A program made the position numbers and the translations under genes. DNA of 64,000 nucleotides, taken from Candidatus Poribacteria bacterium. Lineage in GTDB: Bacteria; Poribacteria; WGA-4E; WGA-3G. How positions within the stretch are numbered: position 1 is the stretch's first letter; each line of letters opens with the position of its first letter. The stretch is taken from contig OZ244048.1 in assembly GCA_965215265.1 (NCBI GenBank), forward strand, positions 2,912,001 to 2,976,000. Reading direction: 5' to 3'. The notes below the pieces were generated by a model. The model searched no databases and was not told where the DNA came from. It was given only the letters and a program-made list of their open reading frames with translations. Below are positions 38,391-38,822 of this stretch, piece by piece.

Positions 38391-38822
38391 CTAACATGAG
38401 CTCTGCGTCTCTATCGTATAAACCCCATTTGTCCATATTCTAGTGATATATGAAGTTCGGAACCACGATATACAGTAGGGACCCACATAATCATACTGCT
38501 CTGCACATTGTTGGTTGTTTTCAGTAGTTGTAATGCAATCTGTGGATGAACTGTTTGTTCCACAAACAGCGTGGCCCCCACCCGATCGTTTGGAAGAGAT
38601 CCATCCGGAGCCGCTCCAAGACGTTTCGCAGTCTGAGGAGGCACAGACACCAGATGTGGGATAAACCTGCGCGTAGGTTTCGCACGGCCCCGCTCCCCGT
38701 GTTGCAAGCATTTCTGCTTGACTGAGGGTTTGGAAGGGAGCGTCGGGGTGAAAATTCACCTCCAATAGAGTGAGTCCTGCAATGAGCATGAGGAAGAGTA
38801 TCGGAAAAACTGTTGATTTCAT
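38391..38822 (-). CDS. Precursor: Sec signal + double-glycine-type leader + 99-aa 8-Cys core
   Basis: RBS AGGAG; LSQAEMLATRGA|G fits LSxxELxxxxG(G/A); adjacent to a C39 peptidase. Confidence 0.8.
   Translation of the reverse strand: MKSTVFPILFLMLIAGLTLLEVNFHPDAPFQTLSQAEMLATRGAGPCETYAQVYPTSGVCASSDCETSWSGSGWISSKRSGGGHAVCGTNSSSTDCITTTENNQQCAEQYDYVGPYCISWFRTSYITRIWTNGVYTIETQSSC

Follow-up and report, generated by a model that had tools for sequence, protein, structure and literature searches.

A candidate double-glycine-type leader behind a Sec-type N-terminus in a Cys-rich Poribacteria precursor encoded next to a predicted exported C39 peptidase

The stretch analysed, referred to here as the window, is 64,000 nucleotides of a Candidatus Poribacteria genome (GenBank assembly GCA_965215265.1, contig OZ244048.1, positions 2,912,001 to 2,976,000), and the gene in question, called the precursor gene, lies on its minus strand directly downstream of a gene for a C39 peptidase. 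The product is best read as a precursor that yields a small disulfide-bonded protein, either secreted or periplasmic. It would be exported via Sec and then cut outside the cytoplasm by the C39 peptidase, after a Gly-Ala pair, releasing a disulfide-bonded beta-protein for which no fold match was detected; we put the probability of this reading at roughly 0.6. Exported C39 peptidases as such are already known (FapD; PMC5557850). What appears to be new here is a predicted exported C39 peptidase paired with a neighbouring candidate substrate that bears a canonical leader behind a Sec-type N-terminus.

The precursor gene, its product and its immediate signals are laid out as follows.

38391 to 38822, minus strand: precursor gene, 143 aa plus stop, ATG at 38822
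38831 to 38836, minus strand: Shine-Dalgarno sequence AGGAGA, 8 nt before the ATG at 38822, read from the sequence
38757 to 38822, minus strand: residues 1-22, MK plus an 18-residue hydrophobic segment, a Sec-type signal or uncleaved signal anchor
38691 to 38735, minus strand: residues 30-44, double-glycine-type leader, F30-Q-T-L-S-Q-A-E-M-L-A-T-R-G-A44
38394 to 38690, minus strand: residues 45-143, 99-aa core with 8 conserved Cys, predicted all-beta (8 strands)
38334 to 38348, minus strand: terminator-like hairpin and T-run just downstream of the precursor stop, a consensus match only

The open reading frame (ORF) listing allows an in-frame upstream extension to a GTG at 38885, and the start at the MK of 38822 is common to all precursor homologues in the family alignment, A2. 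Residues 3-20 (STVFPILFLMLIAGLTLL) have a mean Kyte-Doolittle value of 2.28, and a short acidic/polar spacer separates this hydrophobic stretch from the leader segment, in which residues 33-44 (LSQAEMLATRGA) are followed by GPC. The first-pass annotation of this DNA, made from the sequence alone, had described a hydrophobic signal followed by a leader with L-12, S-11, E-8, M-7, G-2 and A-1 at canonical spacing. The translation bears this out and, counting A44 as -1, adds F-15 and T-4. The annotation's 99-aa Ser/Thr/Gly-rich core with eight Cys, the last at the C-terminus, also agrees with the composition count (S16+T13+G10, 39%), with Cys at positions 47, 60, 65, 87, 96, 106, 117 and 143, the final residue. 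By analogy, cleavage would be placed after A44. Folding of the intergenic RNA at 38255-38395 gives z = -4.45. Two perfect or near-perfect palindromes lie on either side of the precursor gene, at 38275-38300 and 38878-38903. One, GGTGACGCGT-loop-ACGCGTCACC, precedes the probable start of the next gene, p402, and has a very similar counterpart at the same place in the relative G161 (L087); a palindrome with an 11-bp stem is located between the C39 gene and the precursor gene.

The precursor belongs to a small family restricted to Poribacteria and not represented by any Pfam or NCBIfam model. Neither collection gave a family for the whole precursor or for residues 25-50 alone, even at E ≤ 10, short models being insensitive. 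An exhaustive HMMER search with the precursor returned 28 proteins at E ≤ 1e-3, 16 of them at E ≤ 1e-10, whereas a word-index search retrieved just two proteins among eight candidates, and the family is visible only to the exhaustive search. One of the 28 matches, P0074 (705 aa, seven repeated stretches), was judged to be a translated DNA repeat and was removed from the alignments and counts. Pattern searches found no relative, either in metagenome contigs with the smaller alignment A3 (41 pattern matches) or with P0001 alone (147 pattern matches). The family profile matches in 10 of 176 Poribacteria genomes, with eight full-length proteins (including that of the window's own genome), a partial match in G026 that covers model positions 38-124 alone, and one that is weak and broken and was set aside. 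The match in G012 (E 0.0021, two internal stops) was treated as spurious. Proteins of 530-990 aa, from relatives and from the own genome, that weakly matched the precursor at their N-termini (E 7.7e-4 to 1) were likewise rejected, and the two that were read (own genome, L002; G013, L004) are unrelated surface proteins sharing only a signal peptide and Ser/Thr-rich sequence.

Alignment A2 has 29 rows, 28 of which have a letter at the leader motif columns. Over these, L33, E37, T41 and G43 are invariant (28/28 each), S34 is found in 21/28 and M38 in 25/28, the remainder being L or I. The double-glycine leader consensus given in PMC6959990 is L(-12)xxxE(-8)L(-7)xxxxG(-2)G(-1), and the precursor family carries L, E, M/L/I and G at the positions from -12 to -2 in 28/28 cases each. 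The motif first proposed for this gene, LSxxExxxxRG(A/G), therefore stands in its L, E and G (28/28) and largely in its S (21/28), but not in its Arg, as residue 42 is Q in 18 rows and R in only 5, and the -1 residue is A, S or G in only 18/28. Mean pairwise identity is 60% over residues 31-45 and 48% in the hydrophobic segment, where G16 is invariant (29/29 rows), and falls to 26% in the core, or 19% when the Cys columns are omitted, all eight core Cys being nearly invariant. A conserved leader with a variable core was the pattern that the first-pass annotation had suggested looking for among homologues, and the asymmetry is typical of leader-guided precursors. Many homologues (P0063-P0076; L052, L054, L056) also have a Gly- or Asp-rich tail after the last Cys, ending TSS, SSS or TS (for example ...GGGS-TSS); the window precursor has no such tail and ends at Cys.

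An AlphaFold 2 (AF2) model of the precursor built with A2 has a mean predicted local distance difference test (pLDDT) score of 85.8. Its N-terminal helix covers residues 5-22, and a second, short one covers residues 35-41 (leader positions -10 to -4); the core is eight-stranded and all-beta, with pLDDT of about 92-97 over residues 51-140. Foldseek searches of the core against the PDB gave no match at E ≤ 1e-3, and the top rows, none significant, include cystatin and fetuin chains (E 0.6-2.4, TM 0.1-0.2). Comparison with 48,161 chains by VIA-align gave a best Z of 3.6 (root-mean-square deviation 8.5, 86 aligned) and none at Z ≥ 5, and an Atlas search with residues 46-143 gave no usable match. 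Because the core was modelled as part of the whole precursor and not alone, the claim is limited to the statement that no fold match was detected.

The gene immediately upstream supplies the candidate peptidase.

38908 to 40344, minus strand: exported C39-DUF1573 protein (export predicted), 478 aa, 85 bp upstream of the precursor gene

The adjacent C39 peptidase invoked in the first-pass annotation is confirmed by a match of this protein to Peptidase_C39 (PF03412) at E 2.4e-12, with 47.3 bits against a cut-off of 22, over residues 20-167 (39844-40287). The C39 domain is followed by DUF1573 Ig-like domains (PF07610, E 2.7e-11). A putative signal peptide, read by eye, occupies residues 1-20 and ends A-Y-A|Q (SFA|A in orthologues), and the hydrophobic signal ends seven residues before the catalytic Cys28. 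As the catalytic Cys is residue 28 after a signal that ends in this way, the C39 domain would begin at the mature N-terminus. The predicted catalytic residues are C28 (40261-40263), H118 (39991-39993) and D134 (39943-39945). Among 43 aligned C39 homologues, Cys28 and His118 are each kept in 40 and Asp134 in 39; the three exceptions form a divergent subgroup that has lost all three residues. The nearest solved relatives of the domain, though weak (E about 1e-3), are peptidase domains of the PCAT1 type, PCATs being peptidase-containing ATP-binding cassette (ABC) transporters, and C28 aligns with the PCAT1 catalytic position (C21A mutant chain in 7n87).

Together, these features suggest a route for the precursor. 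Its hydrophobic N-terminus would take it through Sec with the N-terminus inside, leaving the leader and the 8-Cys core exposed outside the cytoplasm, a topology we infer because of the MK-hydrophobic-acidic layout and the eight Cys. The neighbouring C39 peptidase, itself exported by a predicted cleavable signal peptide, would recognise the leader helix at -10 to -4, with L-12 and M-7 forming the hydrophobic knot and T-4 determining specificity. If PCAT peptidase domains are a guide, it would cut after G43-A44 and free the 99-aa core from G45, in which four disulfides would be expected. A complex prediction for C39 residues 21-175 with precursor residues 22-62, a check proposed in the first-pass annotation, scored 0.33 against 0.02 for the best of three controls, with at least 54% of contacts in common between runs and a partner pLDDT of at least 48. 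This lends weak support to the route. In calibration the mark was reached by 58/80 solved complexes and 2/110 mismatched pairs, though at 0.60 or under by only 7/80 solved complexes and by both mismatches, and since PCAT-leader complexes are solved the score may reflect likeness only.

The first-pass annotation had proposed two steps, signal peptidase first and then C39. The leader behind a Sec-type N-terminus and the syntenic exported C39 agree with this scheme, but the signal peptidase step is doubtful for the window copy. Sites were sought between residue 21 and the leader motif by a crude (-3,-1) rule rather than by SignalP; V-N-F|H and P-D-A|P both fail, leaving the window precursor with no site. 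A site is present in 24/27 homologues (typically V-D-S|N) and absent from the window protein, P0050 and P0057. Prior cleavage by signal peptidase I is therefore plausible in most homologues. For the window copy, in which no signal peptidase site passes the rule, direct release from an uncleaved signal anchor in a single step is no less likely than two-step processing.

Conserved linkage of the two genes was assessed by comparing the ORFs in 10-18 kb around eight relatives' loci with the window proteins. The remaining cassette genes in the window are listed below.

40952 to 42127, minus strand: multihaem c-type cytochrome with four CxxCH, first gene of the cassette (Cytochrome_C554, 6.2e-17)
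40372 to 40968, minus strand: p198, conserved exported protein, always between the cytochrome gene and the C39 gene
37091 to 38299, minus strand: p402, N-terminal membrane helix, linker and LolA-superfamily domain, probable true start at an internal Met at 38251
36147 to 37079, minus strand: p310, paralogue of p402 (hhalign probability 98.7%, E 2.5e-16)

The order multihaem cytochrome, p198, C39-DUF1573, precursor, p402, p310 recurs in other Poribacteria, and missing pieces usually coincide with a contig end. All six products have N-terminal hydrophobic segments or haem-attachment motifs, typical of extracytoplasmic proteins. The C39 gene is directly upstream of the precursor gene in 7/8 relatives' loci (G163, G108, G152, G149, G103, G153 and G026); in the eighth, G124, TolB-like genes interrupt the cassette and there is no C39. 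In metagenomes, 17 of 29 precursor clusters have a longest contig of the same size as that of a C39-DUF1573 homologue, and one such pair has adjacent NCBI locus tags. At least five of the other 12 clusters are on contigs of about 2 kb or less, which are thus too short for both genes. The catalytic Cys is kept in all six C39 copies that have a readable N-terminus and stand beside a leader-bearing precursor (window, G163, G108, G149, G103 and G153). The G026 orthologue of C39 (61% identical) carries Ser where the window protein has Cys28, and its small neighbour keeps the hydrophobic N-terminus (BLASTP E 1e-4, residues 1-20) and lacks the leader segment. This single covariation of catalytic Cys loss with leader loss is suggestive. 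Possible cassette decay was seen in G153, where the C39 gene is split into two ORFs (L057 417-1846), and in G161, where the p402 frame is interrupted shortly after its start (L087 about 10360-10520).

The same layout was found in a second family. The G161 cassette includes, upstream, a gene for a 140-aa protein, P0078 (L087 6203-6625), unrelated to the first family, in which a hydrophobic N-terminus is followed by L-V-T-L-T-D-T-T-L-A-Q-R-V-G-G and an 8-Cys core. Homologues of P0078 occur in 9/176 Poribacteria genomes, have 8-9-Cys cores and share the motif L[VI]VL[ST]D..L.Q.[IV]GG after the hydrophobic segment. The loci are L087, L092-L096, L098 and L099, together with L022 391-2802 and L100-L105; of the nine genomes' loci, the downstream flank is readable in eight, the ninth (G024) stopping at a contig end. 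A C39 with a CGPxSL motif lies within two genes in 7/8 readable loci. In 4/8 loci the downstream gene encodes a single 763-803-aa protein made up of LolA-like, C39 and DUF1573 parts, and the others include one LolA-C39 only, one fusion split in two and one LolA-like only, while in G161 the order is LolA-like, then p198, then C39. The LolA-C39-DUF1573 fusion ties LolA-fold proteins to the peptidase. That an unrelated family repeats the layout beside an exported C39 is the strongest reason to regard the layout as functional.

Several observations weigh against C39 cleavage of an exported precursor. The -1 residue is L, T, V or F in 10/28 homologues, which is unusual for C39 sites, and T stands at -4 where a large hydrophobic residue is usual. 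The oxyanion-type Gln before the catalytic Cys (Q21) is found in only 3/43 C39 homologues, and no curated double-glycine leader model matches the precursor. The calls of signal peptide and anchor were made by eye or by a crude rule and not by a trained predictor. The covariation of Cys and leader rests on one genome. Finally, the pairing of C39 and precursor is not obligatory. G124 (one contig, 93% complete) has a full-length precursor and no C39 match (175-aa domain query, E ≤ 1e-3), and G161 and G033 keep a Cys-bearing C39 without a precursor of the first family, the precursor gene in G161 being missing between C39 and p402.

These last cases are what would be expected if the product were an ordinary Sec-exported periplasmic Cys-rich protein, such as an inhibitor, immunity or structural partner, with the C39 peptidase acting elsewhere and the motif meaningless. 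The cystatin and fetuin chains among the non-significant Foldseek rows point the same way, as do chance occurrences of the motif. When the strict pattern LS..E[LMI]..[ITVL].G[GAS] was searched in all six-frame open frames of at least 50 aa (4.23 million residues, 4.83-Mb genome), it occurred three times, twice by chance, and only the precursor copy follows an N-terminal hydrophobic segment. For that copy this rarity speaks against a chance match, and the conservation of the motif among homologues does so more strongly. This explanation is nevertheless very unlikely, as five motif positions keep their exact spacing in 28/28 homologues despite a divergent core, the predicted helix falls on positions -10 to -4, and the second, unrelated family repeats the layout beside C39 fusions.

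A different alternative retains the interaction and dispenses with the cut. The leader-like segment would dock without being cleaved, and the small protein, anchored in the inner membrane by its N-terminal helix, would use the conserved leader helix to bind the C39 domain or the LolA-fold proteins. For a signal peptide, the hydrophobic segment is unusually conserved (see the identity and invariant G16 above), the window copy has no evident signal peptidase site, and the -1 residue is not small in 10/28 homologues, all of which suit a tether. Versions of the C39-DUF1573 protein that appear non-catalytic also exist in the phylum, namely P0047-P0049 and a paralogue group, group B (about 50% identical, in about 20 Poribacteria genomes), all of which have lost the catalytic Cys. 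A chaperone role of C39-like domains is mentioned in PMC5557850. On the other side, the C39 copies beside leader-bearing precursors all keep Cys, His and Asp, no small precursor follows the group B copies in the loci read, and G-2 is invariant, as for a scissile site rather than a mere docking helix. A permanent tether is accordingly held to be unlikely, and cleavage is preferred.

The classical route, in which the leader is removed in the cytoplasm and the product leaves through a dedicated transporter, also has candidate genes in the window. Upstream of the cassette, a full ABC exporter (transmembrane and nucleotide-binding domains, 43380-45128) is followed by a MacB-type permease (MacB_PCD and FtsX, 42093-43379) that has no ATPase of its own, the exporter stop and permease start abutting at 43379/43380. 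Both genes (ABC_membrane and ABC_tran; MacB_PCD/FtsX) are on the same strand as the precursor gene, 3.5-6 kb upstream. However, the ABC protein has no peptidase domain, its membrane domain starting from residue 21, and the pair had no matches in the relatives' cassettes (loci L051-L058), with an ABC homologue on the other strand in G161. The C39 protein has its own predicted signal peptide, and the precursor has a hydrophobic N-terminus and eight Cys. The genome has three PF03412 matches, none fused to an ABC transporter, and hence no PCAT available for the precursor leader. Cytoplasmic processing with ABC export is thus extremely improbable, and extracytoplasmic cleavage by the neighbouring C39 remains the preferred reading. 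Beyond the window, at L090 7275-8681 (G000:C1 about 2825274-2826680), a 245-aa LolA-like ORF precedes a 201-aa ORF that holds the end of a LolA-like domain and part of a C39 domain, with no precursor nearby; the pair looks like a split or decayed LolA-C39 fusion. In the third C39-like protein of the genome (L062), the C39-like domain is joined to one resembling a sulfatase-modifying factor.

As membrane-anchored, LolA-fold neighbours of the precursor, p402 and p310 are counted in the same module and, speculatively, may hold the hydrophobic segment or carry the product onward; the conservation of that segment and the LolA-C39 fusions suggest that a LolA-fold domain handles it. In the AF2 model of p402 (mean pLDDT 72), a disordered linker joins an N-terminal helix to a LolA-superfamily domain. 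With this model Foldseek returned 54 matches at E ≤ 1e-3, nearly all LolA, LolB or LprG, with TM-scores to the target of 0.45-0.58, the best being LolA3 9tp6 (6.6e-8), and E. coli LolA 7z6w scoring 5.2e-7. Sequence models for LolA-type proteins reach the cassette proteins only below threshold (TIGR00547, E 0.0064), the p402 profile gave nothing below E = 1 against PDB sequences, and p402 showed no significant BLASTP similarity to the G028 fusion protein (E 0.64). In G033, a 625-aa protein (L059 973-2850) consists of extracytoplasmic function (ECF) sigma-factor regions 2 and 4 (Pfam) and a C-terminal domain 39% identical to p310, and its gene is a few kb from the C39-DUF1573 gene of that genome. 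This joining of a p310-like domain to an ECF sigma factor points to a possible sensor role for LolA-fold domains of the p310 type.

The DUF1573 region also has features of its own. It contains a CxC motif, C215-N-C217 (39694-39702), in which both Cys are nearly invariant, and it matches the NCBIfam 'OS_HP2 family (seleno)protein' model at E 1.4e-9, below the model cut-off. Group B genes (L014, L015, L016, L031, L068-L086) have one in-frame TGA, read as selenocysteine in L014, where it aligns between the two Cys of the window motif (CNC versus T-U-H). The aligned TGA and the OS_HP2 match therefore suggest a redox site in an Ig-like DUF1573 domain. Of the two genes upstream, the cytochrome has an N-terminal domain that matches no named family and orthologues 42-48% identical in six relatives' loci (G163, G108, G149, G103, G026 and a second G108 copy). 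The p198 protein has no Pfam match at E ≤ 10 except one at E 0.24 and no solved relative. Its nearest clusters in a protein-language-model atlas are GspN, type II secretion system protein C (T2SS-C) and PilP, with scores of 0.85-0.90 that are leads only, and the single secretin gene of the genome is 1.4 Mb away. Downstream of the cassette, the window also encodes a 373-aa ORF with a fourfold QGIE repeat (32881-34002) and a 451-aa protein (34118-35473) with WD40 repeats (Pfam) and a C-terminal segment (…NFPNPFNPETW…) common to other surface proteins of the genome, both as read from the translations.

A wider reading that joins all of these parts would make the cassette an extracytoplasmic counterpart of the PCAT pathway in Poribacteria, working as an N-terminal protein-sorting system; taken as a whole, it is distinctly unlikely. 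In such a system the signal-anchor helix and the double-glycine leader may form a bipartite tag, and the LolA-fold domain may grip the helix and present the leader to the exported C39, with release of the cargo. The DUF1573 CxC site, with selenocysteine in the paralogue group, and the multihaem cytochrome may oxidatively fold the 8-Cys cargo. The cargo may be a new-fold secreted effector or signal of sponge symbionts. Its possible sensors are p310-like domains; a relative has one of these joined to an ECF sigma factor.

The proposed cleavage has consequences that do not depend on the wider system. Double-glycine leaders are normally cut in the cytoplasm, and the arrangement described here suggests cleavage outside it. 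The pairing of an exported C39 with a candidate substrate is kept across genomes and repeated in a second family. If cleavage occurs as proposed, the double-glycine/C39 recognition module also works outside the cytoplasm, a defined enzyme-substrate pair becomes available for studying exported C39 peptidases, and the precursors constitute a new disulfide-rich family of secreted proteins in uncultivated sponge symbionts, one for which no fold relatives are detectable. For genome mining, it would follow that candidates with double-glycine leaders should not be discarded because they carry a signal peptide.

Among known systems, a co-encoded peptidase that reads a signature beside a transmembrane helix, and releases or re-targets the protein, is familiar from sortase/LPXTG, exosortase/PEP-CTERM, rhombosortase/GlyGly-CTERM and LapG-LapA. 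There, motif and helix lie at the C-terminus, except that LapA has an N-terminal retention module with a di-alanine site, and the peptidases are of other families, so that the resemblance to the window precursor and its C39 neighbour is a functional analogy only. The predicted C-terminal fold of p402 is like that of the LolA/LolB/LprG superfamily. Unlike those proteins, p402 and p310 are predicted to be anchored in the membrane by an N-terminal helix and have no sequence family above cut-off, and they are linked to C39 rather than to LolCDE.

The closest precedent for the location of the peptidase is FapD of the Pseudomonas Fap amyloid system, described in PMC5557850 as a periplasmic C39 peptidase with a Sec signal whose catalytic Cys is needed for function. 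According to the same source, the FapD substrate is not identified, the Fap proteins have no canonical leader, and the authors call the class uncharacterised. The window C39 has a hydrophobic N-terminus, read by eye, that may be a Sec signal like that of FapD, and it differs in the canonical leader encoded by the adjacent gene, in its DUF1573 domains and in its link to LolA-fold proteins. A fap operon would bring amyloid subunits and the FapF porin; no fap-like genes were found among the window proteins, the neighbours being the multihaem cytochrome, p198 and the LolA-fold proteins. PMC5557850 also records inactive C39-like domains of RTX-type type 1 secretion ABC transporters, which bind without cutting. 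They are a precedent for the Cys-less group B and for an uncleaved tether; unlike these cytoplasmic, ABC-fused domains, the C39 beside the precursor keeps its full triad. A literature search, mostly of listings and abstracts, retrieved no account of C39-DUF1573 proteins or of a double-glycine leader placed behind a Sec-type N-terminus, and no paper retrieved had 'DUF1573' and 'C39' together. Periplasmic C39 was found only in the FapD work, and a search for Poribacteria with C39 gave nothing judged relevant.

In textbook descriptions, double-glycine leaders and C39 peptidases belong to the cytoplasmic, ABC-coupled export of bacteriocins and peptide pheromones. That such leaders normally replace a Sec signal, as the first-pass annotation had remarked, agrees with the PCAT literature (PMC6959990). 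In the PCAT1-CtA complex the docking helix spans -10 to -4, residues -7 and -12 form a hydrophobic knot and a variable -4 sets specificity; the LahT leader docks over the same span; and the CtA cargo is 66 aa, so that protein-sized PCAT cargo is known (all from PMC6959990). The Poribacteria precursors share with PCAT substrates (PCAT1-CtA, ComA-ComC and LahT; class II bacteriocins, microcins and lanthipeptides) L-12, E-8, L/M-7, G-2 and a small -1 residue, and with PCAT systems a helix at -10 to -4 with a variable -4, a papain-like Cys/His/Asp C39 peptidase, and a precursor encoded beside the peptidase. They differ in that no ABC transporter is fused to the C39 domain, which has its own predicted signal peptide and DUF1573 domains, and in that the leader, instead of standing at the extreme N-terminus, begins at residue 30 behind a Sec-type segment of roughly 22 residues and precedes a cargo with eight Cys.

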